Below, piece by piece: positions 2,566-52,417 of a stretch of DNA of 64,000 bases; within the stretch, counting starts at the first letter, position 1, and each line of letters starts with the position of its first letter. Made by a program: the position numbers and the translations under genes. The notes beneath the pieces are model-generated. The model ran no database searches. It saw only the letters and a list, made by a program, of their open reading frames with translations, and was not told where the DNA came from. The DNA is taken from contig CM102290.1 of NCBI GenBank assembly GCA_046563655.1, positions 12,896,001 through 12,960,000 of the forward strand, read 5' to 3'. The stretch is from Yuukianura sp. NJ FZ-2021 (Eukaryota).

Positions 2566-7694
<5,129 letters not shown>

Positions 7695-9515: not shown

Positions 9516-12224
9516 ATGGGCCTGGAACCTCCTGGATTCAGCATCATCTGCCTCTTGTTGGCTGCACTGGATCCATCGCTTGGCGCTGCCACGCAAGACA
9601 GGTCAATTCCCCTCGGGGTCATTGTCACCGGACTCCGAGTCGAGGTAAATGTCCAAATCTTATTCAGTAACGAAGCTACTTTATGAATTGACCTTGTCCG
9701 TGTGTCTGTCTCTCTGCCGGCTACAATTATATCACTTAATCTATGGCAAGGTTGCTCTGGCGCCCATATATACAAATGCGGTAACAGGTTGTCACAACTC
9801 TATTTGTTTAAAATTGCGAAAAACAAATTTTTTGTACCAATCCCGTTTGCTTAACATAGCGCGTGGTCAACTTTTTCAGACGAAAAATCAAAATAAACAT
9901 TTATTAAAAAACAGGAGTTATGGCATAACCTGTTAAGAAAAAACAAACAAAATTTTGATTTGAACAACCTTGATCCATGGCACCCCATTACTCCAGGTGA
10001 CCTTATAGGGTCACCATTACCTGTGAAAATGAAAAATAAGAATGAATTTTCGCTTGATGTTTTATGGATCTCCTATTTTTTGAACAGGATGCGAACGTCT
10101 CTTATGAAAACGGAACATCAGTAATTGTTGCAAATTCTCCAATTCGGATTCGGCTCTTCGGTGAAGGATTTACCAATGATACACTTGTCCGGTTCACGTC
10201 AGAGAGTCAAGGCAGATCTGCCGTTTGCCATGACAACTCCATGTCCAACTTGACGTCAAGTCCCGCCTATCCGGTGAGAGTCGAGAATCACATTTAAAAT
10301 TGGGATGTTGAAAAAATTAATTAACAATTAGTTAATTCTTGGTTTTCAAATAAGGTGTCCGATGTTGGTCCGCTGTCAGACTCCGCCTGGCTAGAAATCA
10401 GCTTCCCCTCGCCCACAGTCGGCACTGAATATTTTTTCATTTGCACACTCCAACAAGCCAGCAGTACTTCCGCGTCTACTTGGATTCATCAAGGGAATGA
10501 CGACTGGCTACGAATCAAGGTCAAGGACAGACTCCTCCCCTTCTGGCTCCAATGTCTCTTCATTTCTATTCTGTTGCTGCTGTCAGGCCTCTTTGCAGGG
10601 CTGACCCTTGGTCTCCTAGCACTGGATCGCACTGACCTCAAGATACTGGCCAATACTGGTTCAGACAAAGAAAGAAAGTATGCCAAGACAATCATTCCTC
10701 TTCGGACGCGTGGGAATTATCTACTGTGTAGCCTTGTTCTTGGAAATGTCCTTGTCAACTCTACCCTAACAATTCTTCTGGATGATCTCACTACCGGGGT
10801 TATCGCCATCATTGCATCGACAACAGGGATTGTCATCGTAGGGGAAATCATACCACAGGCGATTTGTTCCAGAAATGGATTGGCCATTGGAGCTAAGACG
10901 GTGTGGCTAACAAAGTTTCTCATGCTCATTACGTTTCCGCTGTCCTACACGATCAGTTTCATCCTGGACAAAATCTTAGGAGAAGAAATTGGAATCGTTT
11001 ACAATCGAGAAAAACTCAAAGAACTTATTACGGTGAATCTTCAAATTTCAAATTTTATTAAAAAAAATTAATTGTTTCAGTTTTCAGTAATTTTCAGATT
11101 AATTTTAGTTCGTTGAAGGTTTTTAGAAGGAGGGGGCGGAGCCATCGCTGAGTTGGCGGGAAATGGCGTTGATCCACTACTTTAAACTATTATTGACTTA
11201 TTGCAGGTAACAATTGAGCACAATGATTTGGAGACAGATGAGGTCAACATCATTTCAGGGGCATTGACCTTAAAAAAGAAAACAGTTGAGGATGTCATGA
11301 CCCCTCTGGCCGAAGTTTTCATGCTTCCAGCCCAAACGTTGTTGGATGCGGAGCTCCTCGCTGAAATTCGAAAACAAGGTTACTCAACGCAAAGAAAATA
11401 TTTTTTTTTGTTTCTGAATTTTTTTTCCAAAAACAAGGTTTTGCACGTATTCCGATCTACGATGGAGAAAGGAGTCGAATATTGTCCGTTTTGAACACGA
11501 AGGACCTCGTGTGTGTAACTGGTGACAAAGTGCCACTACATACTTTGATTGAGCCGAACAATACTTGCTTCTTTGTCTTTTCCGATGCCACACTGGATGT
11601 AATGTTCAACGCATTTAAAACAGGTTTGACAAAAAAATTCATCAATCTTGATTAGGGGTGTAAATAAGTCACTTCTTTCTACAAATCCGGATTTCTGATT
11701 TTAATTTAAAAAATTCGGATTTTAATCCGGATTTCAGAATACAGACGAATTCCCATAAGAGTTTCTTTTAGTTCTCCTAAATTGTAAACAACGTTGGTTT
11801 TCAGCTTCAATTACTAAAAAAAAGTTGAAAATGGAATAGGAATGCTCTTTTTGATTAACTGAATTTAAGGAAGCACTTTAAACTCAAATTTTCGGTTGTT
11901 GAGGTCAATTTTCGAATTCTCCATACCCTAAAATGGGAGAAAAAATCCGTCACATCCGGATTCGATATTTTCGGAATAGGGATAGGGAAGAATCCGGATC
12001 CATCAAAAATCCGGATTTATATCCGGAACAAAAATCCGGATTTACACGCCTAATCTTGATGAAATTTGGCATTGACTTGTTTAATTTCAACAGGAAATCG
12101 GGGTCACATGGCGTTTGTCCAGAAATTGAATACTGGACAAGACGACAGAGACCCATATTGTGAAATCATTGGAATTGTAACACTGGAGGACATCCTGATT
12201 GATTGGTGGCCAGAACGATTTTGA
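9516..12224 (+). CDS. CNNM: CNNM-family paralog C, ending after the CBS pair (no CNBH domain)
   Basis: Exons approx. 9516-9644, 10088-10273, 10355-11032, 11207-11378, 11438-11623, 12093-12224. Contains a signal-like N-terminus, DUF21 motifs (SGLFAGLTLGLLALD, GEIIPQAICSRNGL) and CBS motifs (GFARIP, GHMAFV..DPYCE..TLEDIL), then IDWWPERF*. Confidence 0.88.
9747..9972. mobile_element. hAT-type MITE, CAAGGTT family subtype A
   Basis: Ends CAAGGTT...AACCTTG. 8-bp flanks atctatgg / atccatgg (7/8). Confidence 0.85.
11653..12052. mobile_element. hAT-type MITE with subterminal TCCGGA repeats, in last intron of CNNM-C
   Basis: TIR taggggtgtaaat / atttacacgccta. Perfect 8-bp TSD ATCTTGAT at 11645-11652 and 12053-12060. 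Confidence 0.9.
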
Positions 12225-16635: not shown

Positions 16636-17798
16636 TAAGAACAACGTGAAATCTAGCATGTCATTTCTCTGTGTGTCCTAGTTTAGAAAGACTTGGGTTC
16701 ACTCTTTTATCAAAAAGTTATTCTAAAAACAGTTCCGTTCTTATGTTTCATGGTATTTCTGGGTTGGATAAGGCTGACGCAGCAGAGGTTTCATTGACCC
16801 CTTGGAGTTTTAGGAAAGTTTTTCTGTTCAGCTGTGGGTCAACGAAGAGGTCAACTGCTTATGTCCTATTGGGCAGTAGTTGGAAGGAGCCATAGAGCTG
16901 TAGAGCATTATGATAACAAGACGCCATCTCATGAATTGAGCAGCATGCTGTAATTCTAATCTGGTTTCAAATTTCACTTAAATTAAACAGTAGTTTTCGC
17001 CATTTGGAAAACTCAGATAAAGACAGCGCGATTCAGGGAAGATCTGTGAGCTATTTCTCATGCATGTATCTTGGGTTTGATTTATCTGAAATGTTATCCA
17101 GGATTAATTAAAAAAAAAGAAATGGATTTTGTTTGTTTTTTTTTCTTCTAAATTTAGAAGTTCCACAGAAATTGTTTTTTTTTAAACGAAAGCTGTTAAC
17201 ATGTCAAAACTGTAAAAACCTTTAATGATTAATGGCGTTAGCTAATGAGAATAAATTGCATTAAAAACGTATTGGCCAAATTTGGCCTTCAGGCACAGAT
17301 TGTTCAACTTTGTAGTGTGCCCGTGACTGGCCTACACGTGCACTTTCTGCTGAAAGCTGAAAACAGCTGACAAACCGTAACTCTCGTCGCTTGAAAATCA
17401 TTTTAATCACAGTATTTTGCTTTATTAATTAGCGAAACTACAAGTATATTGACGTTTGTGATAGAACACGGTGCAGAAATACGGGAATCTTCAGCCAACC
17501 TTTCCTAGGAATAAAGGAAGATTGTAACGGTAAGGTTGTAACTACTAAAACATTTGCCACAATCCACCCAGAAAATACAATTCAATCCGAACTTGGTCAT
17601 TCAAATTGGATGATCCAACATCAATAGTAGTAGTTACCGAATGTGATTGCGATTTAAGTATTTATGAGGTTATTGGAGATCATTTTTACCAATTGACACT
17701 TTTTCTTTTCTTTTTTTTACAGAGAAGGAAGTGACTTTAACTCCAGGTCCGTGGCGGGCGGGTGTAATAAATCAATCGTTTTGAACGTTGACTATGTA

Positions 17799-18197
17799 AT
17801 GGATAATCTTACACCGAACGAGGACGAATTTGACTCAATTATTCTTGGAGAAGAAGCAGTTACAACAGTTGGGTTTGAAGAGGGATTGCGGAAAGGGGAC
17901 CTGGAGTGTCAACTAACCGGACTGAATACGGCAATAAAAATACCAAGGACTTTGATCACTTCGCAGTCAGCGTTACTGTCTTACTTGAAAGCAGACATCA
18001 CGGCAAGATTTGGTGATACTTCAATTCCGGCCTCCCTTGTCCAATTGCAGAAGGAGCTTCAAGAAATTGAAACCAAGGAGAAGCTCCTCGACATACTGAA
18101 GACGCTTATCGACAGTGAACACTGCAGTTTACAAACGACTTCATTCACTTCACTGTACCTTACGACTAACCTTTCTGGCGCTAACACTGCTGGGTAG
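17799..18197 (+). CDS. Small LTO1/YAE1-like (Yae1_N, GX3-repeat) protein; first cistron upstream of METTL25
   Basis: 132-aa intronless ORF after a 5'UTR intron (~17530-17722). EFDSIILGEE...GFEEGLRKGDLECQLTG resembles the LTO1 N-terminus and the GxxxGxxxG pattern of LTO1/YAE1 (recalled, divergent). Confidence 0.55.
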   Translation: MDNLTPNEDEFDSIILGEEAVTTVGFEEGLRKGDLECQLTGLNTAIKIPRTLITSQSALLSYLKADITARFGDTSIPASLVQLQKELQEIETKEKLLDILKTLIDSEHCSLQTTSFTSLYLTTNLSGANTAG

Positions 18198-18206
18198 TCC
18201 ACCATC

Positions 18207-20408
18207 ATGAAAGGTTCTGCCCGGAAACTGGACAAACTGCATGACGTGGAAAAATGTTTGGAACGACTGACGTCCTTTCTGACTCCTGCACTTCCGTTCA
18301 TCAACGCCCACAACGTCGATTATTTCGTCAAATCTTATTGGGACCAATACTTGCCTCAAAGAATCCGAACCGATGCTGAACAAGGTCGTGATAATTGTAC
18401 AACATTGAAGTTGCATGTGGATAATCTTTGCAGTGGAGCCTGGAGGAAAAGTGACAATGTCTCAGGAAATGACATACCTTTTCAAAATTGTAATTTGGAG
18501 GATCTTGTACATACTCTAGGAGAATTTGGACTAAAGGCTATGAAAATGAGTGTAACATTGGAGGAAATCCCCCTTTTAACATCCGATACTCCCAGTATTC
18601 ATATTGATCTTGGCGTAGAAGAAGGAGACCTCAAGTTTGACCAAATCATGTCACCCAAGAAAATGCATGAAGTGGAGGCAATGAGTTACTTGATACATCG
18701 TGCAGCCAAAGTCGCTGATCGTTCGTCCATAACTGCAGAAGACGATGTCAACTCCTGCGTCGCTCAGAAACGCACCGTGAAAAACTTGATTGATTTCGGC
18801 AGTGGCAAGGGATATATGAGTTCATTCTTGGCGTTTCTGTACGATTACAAAGTGCTTGCTCTGGATGCTTCACCTGGAAACACTTCCGCTTCTCATGAAA
18901 GATCCGAAAAACTATCCGTAAGGCGGGTTTTCTTTTAAAAAAACGACGAAAACTAATTTTTTTTTGTATACAGAAATACTGGTATCACCTCTTGAGACGT
19001 GCAGCAGAACGAGCTAAGACTGGAGAATGTATCAGCAGCAGATCAAAGCTTTGGAAGGAAAACAAGCATAATGTAGTAGCAGAAGATGAATCTTCTGAAA
19101 ATAATAACTTCGTGGCAATACAACCGAGCAAGGAAAAGGCAGAGATTTACAAGAACTTGACCAATTTAAATCGGATTGTTCATAGTGCAATGGATTTGGA
19201 CGAGTTGTTTCGCCGTCGCGATGTTAATACGAATATGATAGACGACGCACACACTGAATTCGGTATTGTCGGGCTGCATACGTGTGGGTGAGTTTGATTA
19301 ACAAATTGATCTAACTACTGGTATAATGTCGTGTTTTTTAAGGAAGACAACAAGTTATAATTAACCGACATTTTTGTATATTTTACCAGGGACCTTGGTG
19401 TGGACTCAATTAATCTGTTCCTTCAGCATGACAATGCTCTCTTCTTGTGCAACGTTCCATGTTGTTACCATCATTTAGAAGAAATGATTTTCCCAACATC
19501 GGTTTCCGAAGTAAACAGTCCGTACTCTCGTTCACGGCAGAAACGCAGTACTAACAATTGGACAGTTGAGGAGCCAGTGGCTACACAAACTACATTCCCC
19601 CTCAGTTCTTTCTTGCAGCACAAACAGTTCAATCTAGGAAGAAATGCTCGGATGCTGTCTTCCTATTCTCATCAACGGATTCGCGAGGAACTTGATGAAG
19701 TTAGAATTTTTGACATTGATTTTTGCATTGTCATTCTTTTCTTTTTCATACGGTAACCTTATGCTTTTGTATTACAGAAACACGGGGTCGACCTCCATTT
19801 GATTTGGAGACTTCTGCTACAAGTTATCATCAATGAGAAGCTCGGACACACAGTATTGGAACACCAAGTGGGGAAAATTGCTAAACGCTGTTCTAACTTT
19901 GAGGAGTACGTCAGAGAAGCCATGAAAAAGCTTCAACTCGAACACATTCAGGTAAGACTGATAATGGAATAACGATAGACTATATAGTATAATTATTTAT
20001 TTTTGCAGGCCAATACTATTATATATTTTTGCAGGTCACCAACGAAGAAATCAACGACACGTTTCGACGGTATGAACCACAATTCCAGCACTTTCAATTC
20101 TATTACGGAATCAGAACGATGCTAGCGCCACTGCTGGAAGCTTGTATACTCCTAGACAGACTCGCCTATTTGCTGGAACAGGTAACAGTTTCTTTAGTTT
20201 TTAGTTTGAATTAAATATAATTAAAGTTTCAGATATATTAGTCAACTAGTCAAGTTAACTTTTTTTTTTCTAATTTTGGCAATTCTTATTTGTCTAGGAA
20301 GAGATTCGGGATGCTTATATTGTCGAAGTGTTCAACGAACTCATGTCTCCTCGTCGCCATGCTATCCTGGCCTTCAAGATCCCCAGCGACCGTCAACATT
20401 TAATTTGA
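18207..20408 (+). CDS. METTL25: Methyltransferase-like 25 family protein
   Basis: Six exons. Motifs SPKKMHEV, IDFGSGKGY (SAM motif I), GLHTCGDL, VPCCYH, ILLDRLAYL and MSPR. Confidence 0.88.
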
Positions 20409-42839: not shown

Positions 42840-43479
42840 TAGGTTATTTTAAATAAGCTTATATTAGAAGCCTTAAAGGCTTGAACGTTCGGGGAGACCC
42901 TTAGTTGACCTTGACGTGCAGTGGTTTTAGTTGATTACGACAAATGAGTGATGTAGAGCGATAAGCATAACGTGTCTTCTCTTTTCATGTGTTTGTTTGT
43001 GTCCGAGAGTCCGAGGATTGGTGTAGCGCCCTTTGAGTTCGATGCTTCGTTGGTTTAATATGGATTCATGCGCGCGGCGGTCCCCAAGTATTGGACATCT
43101 CTTGTGTGTTTAGTTGTGCCAAAATCCTTGTGAGTATTTTGAGTAAGTGGGTATAGCTGAAGGCAGTGGGAGAGGACGGGAGAACAACAGGATTCCGAGT
43201 CCATTCTACTATGTCATCCACTCCCTTCCACTAAATTCTTTCGTGGGTCTTGTTTGGTGGGACACGGAAGGAGAATACCTTTCAACACAGGTTAGTTAGA
43301 TACTACTTTCAAAGTACAGTTCACTCTCACTCTAAAAACATCAGGATTTCAAGGGAGAACGGTCGATTCAGCGCCATATTTATTACTATATTTAGTTACT
43401 CGAGTCTGCAGTGGACCCTTGACCTAAATTCCTCTACCGTCCATAACAACATTACCTTCGACACGGACCGACCGTCGTC

Positions 43480-45928
43480 ATGGCTCATGTTCCTTCAGAC
43501 GACATGATGGAGGAGACCAGCCTAACTGCCAGAGAGCTCTCTTCAGAATACCTTGACGAAAAGGAACGTACCCTCCAACGATTTGAAGGATGGACTGAAG
43601 GGGATCAAATTGACTTCATTGAGAGCCTACTCCTTCGCGTATGTCACTACCAACACGGTCAGATCAACGAGTTCCTTACACCAATGCTCCAGAGAGATTT
43701 CATTACCCTGTTGCCCAAACAGGGCCTTGACCATGTCGCAGAGACAATTCTGTCATATCTGGATGCCAAGTCCCTCTGTGCTGCTGAACTCGTTTGTAAG
43801 GAGTGGACCCGTGTTATTTCCGACGCAATGCTCTGGAAAAAATTGATTGAACGTAAAGTTCGTACTGATACGCTCTGGAGAGGATTGGCAGAACGACGGG
43901 GCTGGATACGTCACTTGTTCAAACCGAGACATGGCGGAAGTCATCCTGACCACTCTTTCTACCGAATTTTATATCCTAAAATTATACAAGACATTGAAAG
44001 TATAGAAAACAATTGGCTCAAGGGTGAACCAAACATTCAACTCATCAACTGTAGATCTGAAAATTCCAAAGGAGTCTACTGTCTTCAGTACGACGACGGC
44101 AAAATTGTTTCTGGTCTTCGTGATAACACGATTAAAGTTTGGGACAGAGACAGTCTAAACAGCAAAAAGGTGCTTATGGGTCATACAGGGTCTGTTCTGT
44201 GCCTTCAGTATGATGAAAAAGTGATCATCAGTGGGTCAAGTGATTCGACCGTTCGTGTATGGGATGTCAGCTCTGGAGAGTTAGTCAACACGCTCATTCA
44301 TCACTGCGAAGCTGTACTTCACTTGCGATTTAACAATGGAATGATGGTCACGTGTTCCAAGGTAATTAATTACCAGTTACCCCTTGTCTATAACTCTTGT
44401 GTTATAATTTTTCAATTTCCAGTTTTCCTGTAGATATACACAACAATTTTGGCTAAATTGCAGTTTCATTCTGCAGTTCGAATCAACCCCCCACCATTCT
44501 GAAGTAATGGTGGTGGGTGGTTTATTGAAACTGCTGAATAGCTGAATGAAACTGCAATTTACCCACAGTTTACTGCAGTGTGAGGACAATGGACTTAGCC
44601 AAAATTTAATGTAGCGATGATAACAATCTTAGTAGGAAATTCCTTGTTGAAATGAAATTTATGACGTCACAGTGTCACTGACACTCCACCTCCTAAAAAC
44701 TACAACAATTTTTGTTTTATTTTTAATTTAAAGTACGGTATTTGCTCTCGATTAATGACTTTCTTTGAAAACTGAATATTCGAATTTTGATTTGAAATTC
44801 GAGTCGAAAAGACGTATTGAAATTTTCGATTCGTTTTTTTTCAAAGAGCAACTGAAAACTGCATGAGTATGAGTAAGTTACGTACTTTCAACTCAGAATG
44901 TCAATATGTGTTCCGTTCCACATGTCAATGATTATCGATTTCCTTAGGATAATCGATTGCCAACGAAACTGTGTTATGTCAATGCAAGACAAATCCTGCA
45001 GGAGTTACGGAATAGCTAATTCATTGTAACGGAATTCTAATGGATATGATTTTACTTGAATTCAGGATCGAAGCATTGCTGTGTGGGATATGGTTTCGGC
45101 GACTGATATCAACCTACATCGAGTCCTGGTCGGGCACCGTGCAGCCGTGAATGTCGTAGACTTTGATGAAAAGTATATCGTGTCAGCTTCTGGTGATAGA
45201 ACCATCAAGGTACGTTGTCAATGTCAATGTAAATCCAAAGATAGTCATTTAATAAGTCTCTTTTTAGGTGTGGAGTACAAGCTCTTGTGAATTTGTCCGT
45301 ACCCTGAATGGCCACAAGCGCGGAATAGCATGTCTCCAGTACCGGGACAGGCTTGTAGTCAGTGGAAGTTCTGACAACACGATCAGGTAGTGACAAAACA
45401 GGCACAACTTGTGATATAAATGTTGATATTATAACGTTAAATTTTCGTTTTGTAGATTGTGGGATATCGAATGCGGTGTCTGTTTGAAAGTCCTAGAAGG
45501 TCACGAAGAACTCGTACGGTGCATTCGCTTCGATAGCAAACGTATAGTTAGCGGAGCTTATGACGGGTAAGTCATAGTCATTGTCACATTATGGAATGCT
45601 GGAATTTCAATACTGTCTTATTTTCTGCAGCAAAATTAAAGTATGGGATCTCCAGGCTGCACTCGATCCTCGGGCACCATCTTCTTCCTTATGTCTCCGA
45701 ACCCTTAATGTAATTTGTACAGAATTGACGAAATAACTGAAAATTCTAACCAATTCACTCACTTGTTGAAATTTGTTATGACAGAAACATACCGGTCGCG
45801 TGTTTCGACTCCAGTTTGACGAGTTCCAAATTGTAAGTAGTTCCCATGATGACACTATATTGATCTGGGATTTTCTGAACTTTGATCAACCCGACTCTAA
45901 TGGAGGAACACCAAATATGATTGCATGA
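43480..45928 (+). CDS. slmb: beta-TrCP / slimb F-box WD40 protein
   Basis: D-domain ([14 protein letters not shown]), F-box ([27 protein letters not shown]) and WD40 repeats ([55 protein letters not shown]). Confidence 0.97.
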
Positions 45929-46596
45929 GGAAGATAAAAATTAGAACACGAGCGAATTCTAAATTGACAGCATCCGCACTCTACTCGTTGAATAAATGGA
46001 AAAATTCGTAGACAAGGACGCATCCGCATGGAACTAATAAACCGATAGTCGATTGAAAGTGGAACAGGACAGGTTTGGGTGTTGGAGCCGCAGTACGGCG
46101 GCTTCTGGACGGTTATTGTTTATGGACAAGTGACTACGGTAGGAACTGCTCAGGTCTCAACGTCAAGGTCTCTGTGTATTTCTTCTCACCCACTATATGT
46201 TCCACCACTCCACGCTCACAAAACAGTCGTGGATGGTGACATTTTACTCTTTTCGCCAGTTCAGCTCCGTCCTGAGACTGAAGTTGGCTTTCGTATGTTT
46301 TAGATGTAACGGACCCCAGACGAGTTCCTTAACAATTTTGCTTGTAAAACCATCACGCTAGTAATGTAAGAATGACTTCTATTTAAACGTCTTCTGTTGT
46401 AACGTAATTTAAGAACGTATTGATAATTTTTAGACCTAGCCCAGTTTAACTCCAGTCAACGTTTTGGACTCTACTCATTATGATTATAGCACGTGGTGTA
46501 ATCACTTGCTTCAAATAAAAGCGCGGGACGATTCATTCCAGTGAAATTTACGAGCTCTTGTTTATTTATTTTTTCAAAATCGTGTAGAAATTGTGA

Positions 46597-46753
46597 TAAG
46601 GCTTAACGACCGTCATTGTAGCCACACAGTGTAGCCACTACGGCCATCCGTAGTGGCTACATTGCGGCAACTTATGTTGCCACTTTGGAGTGGCTACTTA
46701 AGTTGCCACTGAAAATAGCTGAGTGCGGTTACAACGACGGTCGTTAATCCTTA
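46597..46753. mobile_element. Short IR element (possibly PIF/Harbinger-like MITE)
   Basis: taaggcttaacgaccgtcattgtagcc / ggttacaacgacggtcgttaatcctta (24/27 IR). Internal gtagccac/gtggctac repeats. Related copies at ~40328 and ~52950. Confidence 0.7.
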
Positions 46754-46811
46754 CGTTGCCCTTAAAAGTAATGGGGCTTAGAAGTTCTAATAATTATGAG
46801 TGTATTTTTAC

Positions 46812-47896
46812 TTAACATTTACGGATTCGGTGACTTCGCTTCACACAGCGTTCCATGAAGGCATCCACATAGTCAGTCAGGTCCCGTTCAGTTTGAGTAG
46901 TGGTGGCGATGAGTCGAGTTTCTTCGTCCCTTCCGTCCTTGGAACGATTGGGATTGATATAGCCAAGTGCACGATCAATTTCAAACAAAACGAAGGCAAA
47001 GAATCGCTCGTCTGCGGCTGTGAACGGCAAGTAATGAAGTAGTCCATAACTCTCGTTAGTTTCAGCTAACCGCTGCGTTAACATTCTAAACTTGCCCTCT
47101 ACTGGAAACGCAGGCCCGGCCTGACTCAGTTTCGTGCACAGCGTTGAGAAGTCTGGTGAAGCGTAATACTCAAATGGAAAGTCCAGCTTGTGTTTCTGAT
47201 CTGTTGAATTGTAGAGGATGTCCACTTTACTTAGCAAGTTGACAGTTGGAAGCCCCATGTGACACATCGTCATTGTGGCGTTTGTACTATAACCGATGAA
47301 CAAATCTGCAAAATAGTTTTACGGTTATCCAAAAGCAGGCAATTAGAATTATACATAGATTCTTACTGGCTTACCGGGAGTCAAGAGAATGTTGGCCTCA
47401 AACATGTAGATGTTGCAGACTGACAGTTTTGCATCCAGTAGTTTCTGATAGAAATTCTTGATTGGATTCCTAAGGGTGAATAACTCCACCTATGACAAAG
47501 TTAAGAATAAATGATACAGAAGAACCACGAGGAATGTTGTTGGAATTGGGAATAAGTTACCTGTCCTGGCATATCCAGAATAACAATTGTTCCTGGATCA
47601 TACGTCTGGATTTCGTTAATTAGTTCTGCGTGATGGTGCGTAAAGAAAGAAGTAATTGACTCCATCAAAGCTCCGTTCGGCCCGAGATCCATTGTCTTCA
47701 TGACCTCCGATACTCTCGTAAAGTCCAAAATATTCCAATCTGGCTGGTACACTAGATTGACTTCACAACCGGGGTCAATGTTGCAAATTTTGACGCATCG
47801 ATTTTTGTCTAATAAAAATTTTTGAAGTCCTTTGCAGAAGGTTGACTTTCCTGCTCCAGGAGTTCCAGTAACTCCAATAACATATTTTAACACCAT
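46812..47896 (-). CDS. GPN-loop GTPase (GPN2-like, divergent)
   Basis: Three exons. P-loop GTPGAGKST, NIDPG, LGPNGAL (GPN loop), DMPGQVELFT and NLLSKVD. Confidence 0.88.
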
Positions 47897-47911
47897 ATCG
47901 CCAGCGTTGTA

Positions 47912-48280
47912 TCACTGACCAAGGAACGCCTGTTCTATATGTTTAGAAACCGAAGATAGAAAGTCTTTAGAAATGTGGCCCTGGGACAACCGCAACGAGA
48001 GAACAACTGATTCGGCAGTGGAGTATTTGAATGCTGCTTCAGCAATGACTCGAGCGGCTAATACTAGTTCCGAATTCTCGAACCCAAATAAATTGGTGAT
48101 ATCGTAGGTAGACGATTCGAGATGGTCCGCCTTGTTCACGCGAAACCAAGTCCCGGGTTGCCCCGTTTCGCTCAAAATTACAAGACGGACGTTTGCGAAT
48201 TGTTGAACACACAACTGCACTTCAAAGGACCCAAACGAAACAACAGTGTTCGTACTCTTTACTGGGAACCTTTGTTCCAT
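47912..48280 (-). CDS. PSMG3: Proteasome assembly chaperone 3-like; first cistron upstream of the GPN gene
   Basis: 122-aa intronless ORF. Pattern FPVKS...F.NVRLVILSETGQPGTW...LFG...LAARVI...VVLSL resembles PAC3/PSMG3 in length and motif order (recalled). Confidence 0.7.
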   Translation of the reverse strand: MEQRFPVKSTNTVVSFGSFEVQLCVQQFANVRLVILSETGQPGTWFRVNKADHLESSTYDITNLFGFENSELVLAARVIAEAAFKYSTAESVVLSLRLSQGHISKDFLSSVSKHIEQAFLGQ

Positions 48281-49377
48281 ATTCCTGTATAACAAAAAAG
48301 TGATGTTATTAAGCCGATTCAGCCAAATTAATTTTTACCGAGCTATTAGCAACGTGTAACTTTCCTACCCATCGACAGCAGACGTACAAAGGACGACCAA
48401 GCTTGAAAGAAGTCAAGTACGAAATCCAACGTATTGTTAGTTACTTGAAAAACTGATCTTGAAACCGTCGTTTGAGTTTGATTTACTAGTGAGACAGGAG
48501 ACCACGGACAAACTTGGTTGACGTAACCACAATTTTGCATGTTATAACCATCCTTTCAAGTCTTATTTCAATGGGATCCCACAAGTGGGGAGGGTGAATG
48601 GGTTAAGTTATTGGCAAGGTCGGACGGTGAATGGGTTAAGTTATTGGAAAGATACAACGAATAGTAGTACACCGTAGTGCGACAATAAGAAAGGGAAAAC
48701 ACAATATCCGTACATGTGTCGTATCTGAGGAATAGGTGCCCCTCACATTAGAGCCGAATGCGACGTAAAATTTATGGTAACTCATTGTACCCCAGTTAGC
48801 ATTGTACTATGCCCCTGATACCAATCGTGCAGCGACACTCGAATACAATAAATTTACATTGTAGCCCCCCAAGTATTTTAGGCCACATGTATACCTAACC
48901 AAACGTGACCCGAAGGATACAGGATAACAACAATTGCAGCCCTCCGTTAACCATGCGTGGTTACAATGGATGCCTCTGCTGTACTTCATCAACGCGAAAT
49001 TGGTAAACAAAACTAGAAAATTTGCTGACCGGTTTTGATTACTCCGCTGCTCTTAAATATTCTGTATGTCGTTGTTTCCTCGACTATGTCAGGGACCCTG
49101 GGCCAAGGTCACGTTTGATTTTATCAGGTATTTTACAATTTACACAAAACGTTGCACGAATTGTTACAAAACCTTAGTTTGTGTACAGGGAAGGTCATAA
49201 ATAAACCTCTTGTTGTGTTTCAGTGCCTCTGCTGCCTTCGTTTGGCTTTGAATATCGACTGAATAACTTCCTAGCTTCGAGGCGCTCGAGTGTGAAGCCG
49301 GTACGGTAAAAATATTTAGAAATACAAAGAAATAGACTGACGATGTACTTTGTTTTTAGATAGACACCTCGAGGGGT

Positions 49378-50289
49378 ATGCATACGCAACGTCAGAGAAC
49401 ATCGGAGGAATACCGATTACGTTCCTGCGTTTCCTGCGGTCAGATCTCAGTGTTGGCAAGTCTCTTAAAATCTGTGGCTTTTACTAACAAAGTGAACGTT
49501 ACTGCCATTCCGAGAGGCCTTCGGTTTATAGTGGAAGAGGGAAAGTATGTCCAAGCATCAGTGACAGTCAACCGCGACATTTTTGAAGAGTACAAGATTG
49601 ATAATGATGGGGACGAAGCCGATACCTCATTCAAAGTTTCGTTCAAAGAACTCCTCGACTGCTTAAAATTCTTCTGTACAGATGGACATGGACGGGGTGG
49701 TGATACGTTTGCATCAGCAACGACTACTGCAATTCAGAGTAATAGTAACAGTTCATCGCTCAAGCTCTTGTACAGATCCTTTGGAAACCCCCTTCAGCTA
49801 CTACTGGATGAAAATGGGATTGTCACGGATTTTCAAATAATGACTGAACCATTTGACGATGACTTGATGGAGTTTGACGTAGGTGGAGCAACCATTGCGT
49901 GTAAATTAATTCTTGCATCGGAACAAATGAGTGATCTCCTGGCAGAATTTGAAAGTAACAACCCAGGCACAATTCGAGTCGGTATAATCCCCGACAAGGA
50001 GATGACCCTATCCTGTGACGGCATTGCCGGTGTCATGACTGCATCGATTCCATGCGACTCTGAAATGGTGCAACTCTTTGAAAGTGCTTCAGAGCTTCAC
50101 GTCACGTACAAATTTTCAGTGCTCCGCTATTCATTCCGGGCGATGAACATGAGCCAGACGATGTCCATTAAAATAGACTCCAACGGAGTATTGAGACTGA
50201 TCTTCTTGATGCCTACCAAATCGGATTCTTTTGTAGAATTTTTCTGTCTACCAAGCTCAATGGACGAAACGGATGTTCCAATTGGATAA
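49378..50289 (+). CDS. RAD1: Cell cycle checkpoint protein RAD1 (9-1-1 clamp subunit)
   Basis: Motifs LLKSVAF, GLRFIVEEGKYVQAS...IFEEY, LLDCLKFF, GNPLQLLLDE and C-terminal FVEFFCLP, all typical of Rad1. Confidence 0.88.
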   Translation: MHTQRQRTSEEYRLRSCVSCGQISVLASLLKSVAFTNKVNVTAIPRGLRFIVEEGKYVQASVTVNRDIFEEYKIDNDGDEADTSFKVSFKELLDCLKFFCTDGHGRGGDTFASATTTAIQSNSNSSSLKLLYRSFGNPLQLLLDENGIVTDFQIMTEPFDDDLMEFDVGGATIACKLILASEQMSDLLAEFESNNPGTIRVGIIPDKEMTLSCDGIAGVMTASIPCDSEMVQLFESASELHVTYKFSVLRYSFRAMNMSQTMSIKIDSNGVLRLIFLMPTKSDSFVEFFCLPSSMDETDVPIG

Positions 50290-50966
50290 GAATAAACACT
50301 TTAATACTTTGATATTCCAGACTAATAATCATAACAATAACAACAATAATAATAATAATCCTCGTGCTACGGATGGAATAACTTGGAGAAATTCCTTCTA
50401 TTTTTGTAACCGGAGAATTTGATTACTGCTGTTATGCTGTCATATTTATAATTAAATCACTCGAAGTGAAAATAAAACGATATTTAGAATTTTTTAGTCC
50501 GTTTTTGTGCCCAATTTATAATTGGTGCTTTAGAAATAGCGGTTGCAACGTGTGGTTACAATATGTGCAGTTCCGGCTTATGTCAACCAATACTGAGATC
50601 AGCTGGGAGTTTGAGTTTTAATTAGTATCTCTCTATCAAACAATAATTTTAAAATAATAACTAAACTAAAGTTAAGTTTGATTGAAACGAAACGGGATTT
50701 TGCTCTCAGACGGTTTTTCTCGAATTATCATCACAGTATCCAACATCACATCAATTCTGTGCATTATATTTGACTTCTGCTAAGGTGAGACTTTGATTTT
50801 GATTTTGTTTTAATTTTCTGGGGCTACCAAACCTAAAACACATTAAAAACAATAAATTTCTGTGGAAAATATAGGAGGTGTAACGAGGCGGCAGAGGATA
50901 CCAAGATAGAACGGAACGCCATGGAATTGCTACATGTGCTGTAAGAATGTAAACGAACTTGGAAAT

Positions 50967-52417
50967 ATGGCAGGACATGGAAATTTCACATCTACCAGGC
51001 CGTTTACCGAAGACTTAAAAATTTGTGAATGCACTGGTAAGACTTCAAAGTTTTTTCTTAGAGGCTAAGCAGTATTGCAGTTGCATAGTACTTCTTACCT
51101 CCACATTTGTTGACGATCGTTCTCTCGTTTCCCTTATTAGGAGTGGGGTTTCAGCCTAATCAACTGTATCAGCGTGACGGGCAACGGACGAACGAACATG
51201 ATCCGGAAGACAAGAGCTTTCATTATAAGCCAGACGAAAACATAGCACTGTACGGTGTTTTCGATGGGATGAATGGATGCGATGCAGCGGTTTACGTAAT
51301 GCAGGAAATGCCTGGACAAATTCTCCTGGGACAACTTTCGGATAATAGTACGGAAGTTGAAATTCGTGATGTGCTGAAACAAGCGTTCCTGTCTGTTGAA
51401 AGAGGATATTTCCAAACTGTCGTGGACCCACTTCTTGTTCAGCGAGTCAGGATGCTGTCTGAGGTTTCGGAGGCGGGAGACGGTACAACGTATTACGCAC
51501 CGGGAGCAGACCATCCGAGGTTGGATATTTCGGAGAAAGGGATAACTTCCAGTGCTTCCGCTCTAGTCGTACTCATGTTCAACGGGAAACTGTATATTGC
51601 AAATGCCGGTGACTGTCGAGCGCAAGTCTGTGTTACGGATCCATCAACAGGCGTGAAGGAAGTCATTGAACTCAATTCTACTCATGACTTGCGGAATGAA
51701 GATGAACTTCAGCGCCTTCGATCACTAAACCTAGACTTGGACGCTTTAGGCGGGAAAATAGGAAATCAAGAAATAACTAGATGTATTGGAAATTACCTCG
51801 TCAAAGGCGGGTACAAGGAAGACAGTGTTCTGAACCATGCAACAAGTGAACCCGTTATAGCAGAGCCAGAAATTACAAGTTACCCAATGACCGATACAAC
51901 ACACTTTCTCATTCTTCTTTCCAGCGGACTTTACAAAGCCTTGGAAGAGGTTACGGAACATGTCAACTCTTTTCTTGCCGAAACGATCATGGAGGAGTTC
52001 AGTATGCAGACGTCAATGAATGGAGTGGTCCAAGCTGTTATTGACAAAGTTGCTCGAATGCATCAAGAGGTTCCTCGTGTATGTAGGCGGGAGGACATGA
52101 CACTTCTTGTTCGTAATTTCAATTACCCGCTCAGAAGCCAGTCAAGGTCAAGTCCGTTGACGGACAGATACCGCTACCCATCCTCCAGTTTGACTCCATT
52201 TACGCCTACGTTTACCGGAACGTATGGAATTCATCTCGAAGAAGATCAGTTCTACGATCCAGACACAGTTTCAATTGATACGGCCAGTTCTGACTCTCTC
52301 CCGCCGACTAAAGTTAAATTTCCGGAGAAAATCAAACCCTATGTCGATTTTACAAGCTACTACAAAGCCCTTGAAACAAATCCTGACCTCAGTGAACAGT
52401 ATTTCTTCAATGAGTGA
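50967..52417 (+). CDS. TAB1: TAK1-binding protein 1 (PP2C-fold pseudophosphatase)
   Basis: Two exons (50967-51036, 51141-52417). Motifs FTEDLKIC..GVG, LYGVFDG, ILLGQL, LYIANAG, EDMTLLVRNF and C-terminal PYVDF (TAK1-binding). Confidence 0.9.

Follow-up and report, generated by a model that had tools for sequence, protein, structure and literature searches.

How two proteins can be made from a stretch of DNA that seems to leave room for only one mRNA is the question raised by a locus in contig CM102290.1 (Yuukianura sp. NJ FZ-2021, GenBank assembly GCA_046563655.1). The stretch analysed, positions 12,896,001 to 12,960,000 of this contig, is 64,000 nucleotides (nt) long and is called the window here. 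On its minus strand, an open reading frame (ORF) for a PAC3/PSMG3-like proteasome assembly chaperone is followed almost immediately by a gene for a GPN-loop GTPase. The comparative evidence strongly favours the expression of PAC3 and GPN as one dicistronic unit. On balance, it is probable that the pair forms one conserved dicistronic mRNA, in which the GPN start would be reached mainly by leaky scanning, with reinitiation possibly contributing.

The PAC3 and GPN genes and their tandem arrangement

The upstream ORF (ORF1) begins with the ATG at 48280, comprises 122 codons on the minus strand, and ends with the TGA at 47914-47912. It matches Pfam PF10178 with 30.8 bits (cut-off 21.2; E-value 3.4e-7), and the match extends over residues 34-117 of the ORF and over profile positions 1-86 out of 87. 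Alignment A3, composed of ORF1 and its relatives, yields a profile that matches the human PAC3 structure 2z5e_A with an E-value of 1.2e-9 over profile positions 9-112. Chaperones of the PAC3 family are characterised by pairing with PAC4 and by a role at the alpha ring of the proteasome. When ORF1 is compared with its counterpart in the related locus L001, described below, the nucleotide identity is 62, 74, and 35% at the three codon positions. Thus, the PAC3 frame shows the pattern of a translated frame.

The GPN ATG at 47896 lies 15 nt past the PAC3 TGA, in a frame common to both ORFs (TGA TAC AAC GCT GGC GAT ATG on the minus strand). This ATG is considered to be the GPN start because the next in-frame Met sits behind the P-loop. 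Minus-strand ATGs in the region from 48560 to 47880 are found at 48551, 48540, 48372, 48280, 47896, and 47883, and nowhere else. The 381 nt between the two starts, from 48277 to 47897, contain no ATG in any frame.

The first GPN exon matches PF03029 (ATP_bind_1) with 89.6 bits (cut-off 27; E-value 3.7e-25), and its translation contains both GTPGAGKS and LGPNGAL. The three-exon model of the gene is 945 nt long and encodes 314 amino acids (aa) without internal stops. It aligns gap-free over both exon junctions with the uninterrupted GPN ORF of the second related locus, L002. GPN3 (9t5j_C) is the best solved-structure match of this L002 ORF (E-value 4.6e-26), and GPN1 matches with 3.9e-15; no chain named GPN2 is among the five solved-structure matches. 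Database relatives of GPN exon 1 obtained by the word-based search at longer lengths are limited to three weak matches, 35-43% identical.

The related loci were recovered from environmental sequences. The exhaustive phmmer search with ORF1 returned five proteins at E-values of 0.001 or lower, the best of which, P0004, is 50% identical. One scan of metagenome contigs was made with the motifs ETGQPGTW and YDIT[NT]LFG, derived from the two closest sequences. It gave 88 pattern matches, of which two were confirmed as encoding a relative: L001, 13,886 nt long, and L002, the 1,394-nt contig that encodes P0004. The word-based search with the PAC3 ORF at near lengths gave no match, no search being aimed at longer or fused PAC3 forms. 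The same type of search with the A3 profile gave six matches, three of which were already part of the profile.

The PAC3-GPN tandem is present in both recovered loci. In L001, the PAC3 ORF (132 aa; PF10178, 41.3 bits, E-value 1.9e-10) ends with TAA, and the GPN ATG follows in frame after 3 nt. In L002, the TGA of the 129-aa PAC3 ORF overlaps the GPN ATG as ATGA, corresponding to a spacer of -4 nt and a frame offset of 2. The spacer is 15 nt long in the window, 3 nt in L001, and -4 nt in L002, never exceeding 15 nt, and its sequence is not conserved. The protein identity to the window is 50-54% for PAC3, about 59% for GPN exon 1, and 69% for Rad1. At the third codon positions of ORF1, the identity to the window is 35% for L001 and 26% for L002.

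A block of five genes, beta-TrCP, GPN, PAC3, Rad1, and PP2C, has the same order and orientation in the window (43447-52417) and in L001 (225-10789). In both loci, PP2C and Rad1 are located upstream on the opposite strand, and beta-TrCP is located downstream, also on the opposite strand. Within the block, the proteins are 50-90% identical, and the third codon positions have been randomised to a large extent. Because of this common neighbourhood, L001 is regarded as the orthologous locus, so the adjacency of PAC3 and GPN there is partly plain synteny.

Both GPN introns are at identical positions in the window and L001. L002 carries PAC3 and 298 GPN codons in one piece (GPN ORF 499-1392), without either of the introns. 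The intron-free L002 looks like a spliced dicistronic transcript, and would also fit the genomic loss of both introns. Its 5' part keeps a T-rich tract and AG directly before the PAC3 ATG.

The GPN GTPase family is tied to RNA-polymerase assembly. The first-pass annotation of this DNA, made from the letters alone, had described a PSMG3-like ORF ending in TGA, with the ATG of an RNA-polymerase assembly GTPase in frame 15 nt on and about 380 nt free of ATG between the starts. The junction was confirmed base by base, the absence of ATG proved to be complete over 381 nt in all frames, and the PAC3 assignment is borne out by a Pfam score above the cut-off. For the GTPase, membership of the GPN-loop family stands, with PF03029 and GPN3 as the best solved match, and the assembly role is assigned through the family. 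The linkage and the depletion that had been described for the window extend to the relatives, with the tandem in two of two loci and one ATG between the starts in each.

ATG depletion between the two start codons

The ATG depletion between the PAC3 and GPN starts is specific, and it is conserved across the three loci. The control set, drawn from coding regions in the window, in L001, and in L002, comprises 12,327 nt and contains 2.0 ATGs per 100 nt. Between the PAC3 and GPN starts, there are no ATGs in 381 nt in the window, one in 399 nt in L001, and one in 383 nt in L002. When the three loci are pooled, two ATGs are observed against 23.2 expected from the control density (Poisson 2.4e-8); since the three loci are homologous, this value should be read as indicative and not as exact. 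In the sliding-window control, not one of the 6366 windows of 381 nt over 14 control coding stretches contains one or no ATG. Fifteen other trinucleotides, including the permutations of A, T, and G and the near-cognate codons, occur at about 0.4-1.5 times the expectation.

The depletion is also seen in the protein sequences. In the three loci together, 380 residues follow the initiators, and not one of them is Met, against 2.8% Met in the controls (P about 2e-5). Lack of Met is not an intrinsic property of the PAC3 family: at least two internal Met are present in the aligned part of human PAC3, and the Andalucia homologue P0008, the only PAC3 homologue found that carries an organism name, has two. 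The environmental PAC3 homologues P0005, P0007 (which clusters with P0009-P0011), P0012, P0013, and P0014 are 134-154 aa long and have no internal Met. Scans of genome and viral contigs for relatives of the second Met-free PAC3 group (A4) found none.

Neither of the single stray ATGs of L001 and L002 is in frame, and the ORFs that they open are 20 codons long in L001 and 15 codons long in L002. These ORFs stop 167 nt (L001) and 157 nt (L002) before the GPN ATG. As they end well ahead of it, scanning could resume.

The length of the ATG-free run is not rare by itself. On both strands of the window, six of the 2175 gaps from ATG to ATG are 381 nt or longer. The run from 48277 to 47897 is sense-strand coding sequence, and it is bounded exactly by two successive gene starts. 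Among the six longest ATG-free runs in the window, two span from start to start, the PAC3-GPN run and the run at 17799-18207. It is this setting, coding in sense and extending from gene start to gene start, that makes the run significant, not its length. The randomised third codon positions of ORF1 indicate that the depletion is not simply inherited from a common ancestor sequence. The removal of AUG in every frame over the whole of ORF1 is the outcome of selection that is expected if 40S subunits must reach GPN without being captured.

Expression of the two cistrons

In the proposed mechanism, a capped mRNA would start upstream of 48280, cross both ORFs, and end beyond 46812. A fraction of 40S subunits would initiate at the PAC3 AUG and produce the chaperone. 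The remaining subunits would bypass this AUG, scan about 380 nt that selection may have kept (nearly) AUG-free in all frames, and initiate at the next AUG, which is the GPN start. Some of the ribosomes that finish PAC3 may reinitiate at GPN, as the stop and the restart are only -4 to +15 nt apart; leaky scanning would presumably take the larger share.

The geometry of the junction is consistent with a single transcript. With only -4 to 15 nt between the cistrons, neither a 3' untranslated region (3'UTR) nor a poly(A) signal nor a promoter can be accommodated there. From the overlap of stop and start in L002, it follows that a PAC3 mRNA must run into GPN, and that the 5' end of a GPN mRNA must be located inside PAC3 or ahead of it. 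Neither AATAAA nor ATTAAA is found in the PAC3-GPN unit of the window; they are also absent past the GPN stop, so the hexamer scan is uninformative. The first-pass annotation had proposed one mRNA for both proteins. The conserved tandem in two of two loci and the specific ATG depletion speak for this proposal, and it is from them that we infer the single transcript.

A T-rich tract followed by AG is located 3-4 nt ahead of the PAC3 ATG in all three loci, and similar tracts are located 15-18 nt ahead of the Rad1 ATG in both the window and L001. Such tracts would fit a lineage in which 5'UTR introns are common, or one that uses spliced-leader trans-splicing. A 5'UTR intron and an upstream ORF (uORF) had been annotated here in the first pass. 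For the 54-nt intron, the GT...AG segment with its T-rich tract is present, and a cis-intron in the window is plausible: the candidate donor, GTAA, is the donor type of both GPN introns, and the 3' end is ACAG. In the L001 counterpart, the sole nearby GT yields a segment of 30 nt, and the candidate donor in L002 is GTACCC. The conserved feature before the PAC3 ATG could equally be the acceptor alone, belonging to an outron or serving trans-splicing. The eight-codon uORF (48372-48346, MGRKVTRC and a stop) is present in the sequence and is conserved in neither relative: L002 has no ATG in the 112 upstream nt, and the nearest upstream ATGs of L001 are 78-89 nt away.

Several observations weigh against leaky scanning on a dicistronic mRNA. 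When the ORF1 sequences of the three loci are shuffled synonymously, with amino acids fixed and local codon usage kept, the shuffles contain a mean of 4.76 out-of-frame ATGs, against two observed (P = 0.08). Such a weak depletion means that much of the ATG avoidance resides in the protein itself, in its lack of Met and its scarcity of ATG-prone dipeptides. The tight spacing of stop and start is not needed by leaky scanning, and fits reinitiation or plain compaction equally. The adjacency in L001 could by itself be plain synteny. Ahead of the GPN ATG, CAG occurs at a distance of 18 nt in the window, 13 nt in L001, and 1 nt in L002, where a C/T-rich tract is also present, and the AG 1-18 nt before every GPN ATG may mark a processing site. 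Finally, in the PAC3 start contexts of all three loci, GAATATGG in the window and GGATATGG in both L001 and L002, position -3 is a purine and position +4 is G. In vertebrates, this combination makes a good start context and limits leakiness. By that rule, the strong-looking PAC3 context would limit leakiness here as well, although it may not be the consensus of this organism; the T at -1 is unfavourable.

The same dicistronic mRNA could instead yield GPN mainly by termination-reinitiation, with ribosomes terminating at the PAC3 stop and their 40S subunits starting again at the nearby GPN AUG. We consider this rather unlikely as the main route. The geometry is that of known coupled termination-reinitiation, for example at the UAAUG of influenza B segment 7 and of hypovirus CHV1: stop and restart are within -4 to +15 nt in all three loci, including the ATGA overlap in L002. 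The strong-looking PAC3 context would suit the translation of ORF1 feeding ORF2. According to the green-alga study (PMC11892635), reinitiation is another possible origin of AUG avoidance close to the stop, yet reinitiation after an ORF of 122-132 codons is normally inefficient. Reinitiation does not require ATG depletion from the first codons of ORF1, far from the stop, which is where the observed depletion begins. UGGGA is the core of the calicivirus termination upstream ribosome-binding site (TURBS). It is absent (as UGGGA/TGGGA) from the last 120 nt of ORF1 and the spacer in all three loci, and the folding of the junction is no better than that of shuffled sequences (z -0.89, 0.27, and 0.29). 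With neither a fold signal nor a motif, a dedicated TURBS-like signal, or one resembling an internal ribosome entry site, was rejected for the PAC3-GPN junction.

Two mature mRNAs would be made if GPN had its own internal promoter or were trans-spliced to a spliced leader, and the PAC3 region would then serve as its leader, outron, or precursor. This is unlikely. The T-rich/AG tracts before the PAC3 ATG in three of three loci and before the Rad1 ATG in the window and L001 are the pattern expected of trans-splicing organisms, and the CAG and the C/T-rich tract before GPN described above could be taken as acceptors. A leader overlapping ORF1 would likewise select against upstream AUGs. Against this, the junction has no space in which PAC3 could have its own 3'UTR or poly(A) signal, and with the stop and start overlapping as in L002, a single precursor cannot give both mRNAs complete. 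Trans-splicing just before the GPN ATG would remove the need for depletion throughout ORF1, yet the depletion begins at the first codon. The tracts ahead of the GPN ATG are far less T-rich than the real acceptors of these loci. The Rfam scan of the 64-kb window gave no match at the gathering score and thus no spliced-leader RNA gene, although none is expected within 64 kb.

A fusion protein, formed by readthrough or by a small intron that removes the stop, is highly improbable. The window (TGA and 15 nt) and L001 (TAA and 3 nt) have both ORFs in one frame across the spacer, but in L002 they are in different frames (ATGA, offset 2); as the frame relation thus differs among the loci, readthrough fusion was rejected. 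An intron is absent from this place in L002, there is no evident GT...AG that would excise the stop, and readthrough leaves the ATG depletion unexplained. It is likewise very improbable that unrelated neighbouring genes came close together by chance and that the small protein happens to be Met-free. ATG-free runs of this length do occur in the window (six of 2175 gaps), about 3% of such ORFs are expected to be Met-free at 2.8% Met, and the wider neighbourhood is syntenic in any case. Against chance, the design recurs in all three loci despite randomised third positions, the two ATGs observed against 23.2 expected reflect a depletion specific to ATG that no control coding window approaches, and the spacers hold at 15 nt or less while their sequence varies.

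Known dicistronic systems and further features of the window

Dicistronic expression with a comparable signature is known from Drosophila. PMC4528330 gives 159 dicistronic pairs, or 2.5% of genes, as annotated in FlyBase. For stoned and Snapin, the second ORF is reported to be translated less when the first cistron contains AUGs (Wall et al. 2005, J Biol Chem 280:27670, as cited in PMC3372440 and PMC4528330). The PAC3-GPN pair resembles stoned and Snapin in being a same-strand pair of animal nuclear genes with a short spacer, in which a first cistron lacking AUG would let scanning reach the second start. In contrast to the Drosophila type, the gene pair is another one, the depletion covers all three frames, and the pair is known from sequence alone, being kept at about 50-64% protein identity among environmental relatives. 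Terms for PAC3 or GPN do not occur in the six searchable supplementary files of PMC4528330 (file 1 was outside the search).

Green algae provide the other close parallel. Bicistronic loci there include TOM22, OST4, and REX1S/REX1B (PMC7896298, PMC11892635). PMC11892635 reports that AUG depletion before ORF2 and reporter mutations support leaky scanning, that the output of ORF2 is inverse to the Kozak strength of ORF1, and that an AUG put back into ORF1 cuts the output of ORF2. These algal loci share with the PAC3-GPN pair a small upstream ORF, a short distance between the ORFs (14 nt in REX1), AUG depletion before ORF2, colinearity kept across distant species, and unrelated ORF frames. In contrast, they belong to algae of the plant lineage, whereas the window carries animal-type genes (for example, beta-TrCP with its D domain). 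The algal ORF1 contexts described are weak Kozak-like ones, whereas the purine at -3 and G at +4 of PAC3 look strong. The terms PAC3, PSMG3, and GPN have no occurrence in six supplementary files of PMC7896298, and the literature searched contains no link of PAC3/PSMG3 or GPN genes to a dicistronic mRNA. An AUG-poor first cistron is a recognised signature where scanning is used, and the PAC3-GPN pair would be an addition to this known dicistronic type.

Spliced-leader operons are known in nematodes, tunicates, flatworms, and rotifers. In these operons, the upstream gene keeps its 3'UTR and poly(A) signal, and an AUG-free upstream ORF is not needed. The PAC3-GPN locus is similar to them in its same-strand pair, such pairs being co-transcribed in operons, and in the acceptor-like AGs near the starts of PAC3, GPN, and Rad1. 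It differs in the spacer of -4 to 15 nt, in the lack of a poly(A) hexamer between the stops in the window, and in the AUG depletion of ORF1. Viral termination-reinitiation, as in influenza B M1/BM2 and in hypovirus CHV1 with its UAAUG, shares the overlap of stop and restart or their distance of a few nt. The PAC3-GPN junction differs from these systems in having neither the 18S-complementary UGGGA nor an unusual upstream structure, and the viral systems are without the AUG depletion of a whole ORF that PAC3-GPN has.

Table 1. Features of the PAC3-GPN locus, of its related loci, and of the second unit in the window. Positions refer to the window unless L001 or L002 is named.
Feature	Position	Strand	Details and basis
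T-rich/AG tracts, window	48285-48300, 49345-49360
T-rich/AG tracts, L001	~3950-3967, 3303-3320
T-rich/AG tract, L002	~92-108
Possible uORF, 8 codons	48346..48372	-	ATG at 48372 in the sequence; predicted
Candidate 5'UTR intron, 54 nt	48285..48338	-	GTAAAA...TTTTTTGTTATACAG; GTAA donor, T-rich tract, AG
Cistron 1, PAC3/PSMG3-like proteasome assembly chaperone, 122 aa	47912..48280	-	PF10178, ATG count
Intercistronic spacer, 15 nt	47897..47911	-	TACAACGCTGGCGAT; ATG-free, in frame
GPN exon 1	47561..47896	-	P-loop GTPGAGKS and GPNG motif; PF03029, translation
GPN intron 1, 71 nt	47490..47560	-	GTAACT...CATAG; junction lies in a gap-free part of the alignment with the uninterrupted GPN ORF of L002
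GPN exon 2	47375..47489	-	Three-exon model
GPN intron 2, 69 nt	47306..47374	-	GTAAGC...TTTTGCAG; splice-site inspection, L002 alignment
GPN exon 3, including TAA stop	46812..47305	-	Three-exon model
Nested palindromic element	46597..46753	.	Starts 59 nt downstream of the GPN stop
Second dicistron-like unit	17794-18207, on to about 19756	+	ATG-free run and Methyltransf_32

A second unit of identical design is found in the window. Its ORF1 (17799-18197) encodes 132 aa and ends with TAG, and 405 nt are without ATG in any frame. After an in-frame spacer of 9 nt, the ATG of a gene with Methyltransf_32 (PF13679) follows. All of the 30 best Atlas hits of this ORF1 are Yae1_N (PF09811) clusters (score 0.92), and there is no Pfam match at the gathering score. 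A minimal start-stop, ATGTAATGG, overlaps the start codon of this ORF1. A third candidate, the ATG-free run from 58612 to 58302, was dropped, as it translates to a low-complexity sequence that belongs to no family.

Two such units, PAC3-GPN and Yae1-like-Methyltransf_32, are thus present in one 64-kb window. It is possible, though doubtful, that an apparently poorly sampled animal-like lineage routinely pairs housekeeping genes via AUG-free upstream cistrons, as green algae do, and that PAC3 is a recurrent Met-free first cistron beyond this clade. If the dicistronic reading is true, expression based on scanning would have been under long-term selection outside Drosophila and green algae, and the dosage of a proteasome-assembly factor would be coupled to that of a GPN GTPase. 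Eukaryotic annotation normally assumes one ORF per mRNA, so such units are split, fused, or half-missed by gene finders. The signature, an ATG-free run extending exactly from one gene start to the next, is usable for scans of whole assemblies.

On the 3' side of GPN, the window palindrome consists of 31-nt arms that are 87% complementary, with two inner hairpins. L001 has a palindrome at 5539-5678, 45 nt past the GPN stop, whose sequence is unrelated to that of the window palindrome; both elements are about 140-160 nt long. No clear second copy of the window palindrome was seen within the 64 kb. It may represent a small insertion of the inverted-repeat type or else an element of the 3' end, and its membership of the PAC3-GPN unit is uncertain.

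Other genes in the window are animal-like: beta-TrCP with the D domain, Rad1, CNNM, SRR1, PP2C, and GPAT. CNNM (PF01595) is represented by two fragments on opposite strands, at 5926-6483 (minus) and 10325-11071 (plus), about 4 kb apart. These fragments are possibly a divergent pair of paralogues.

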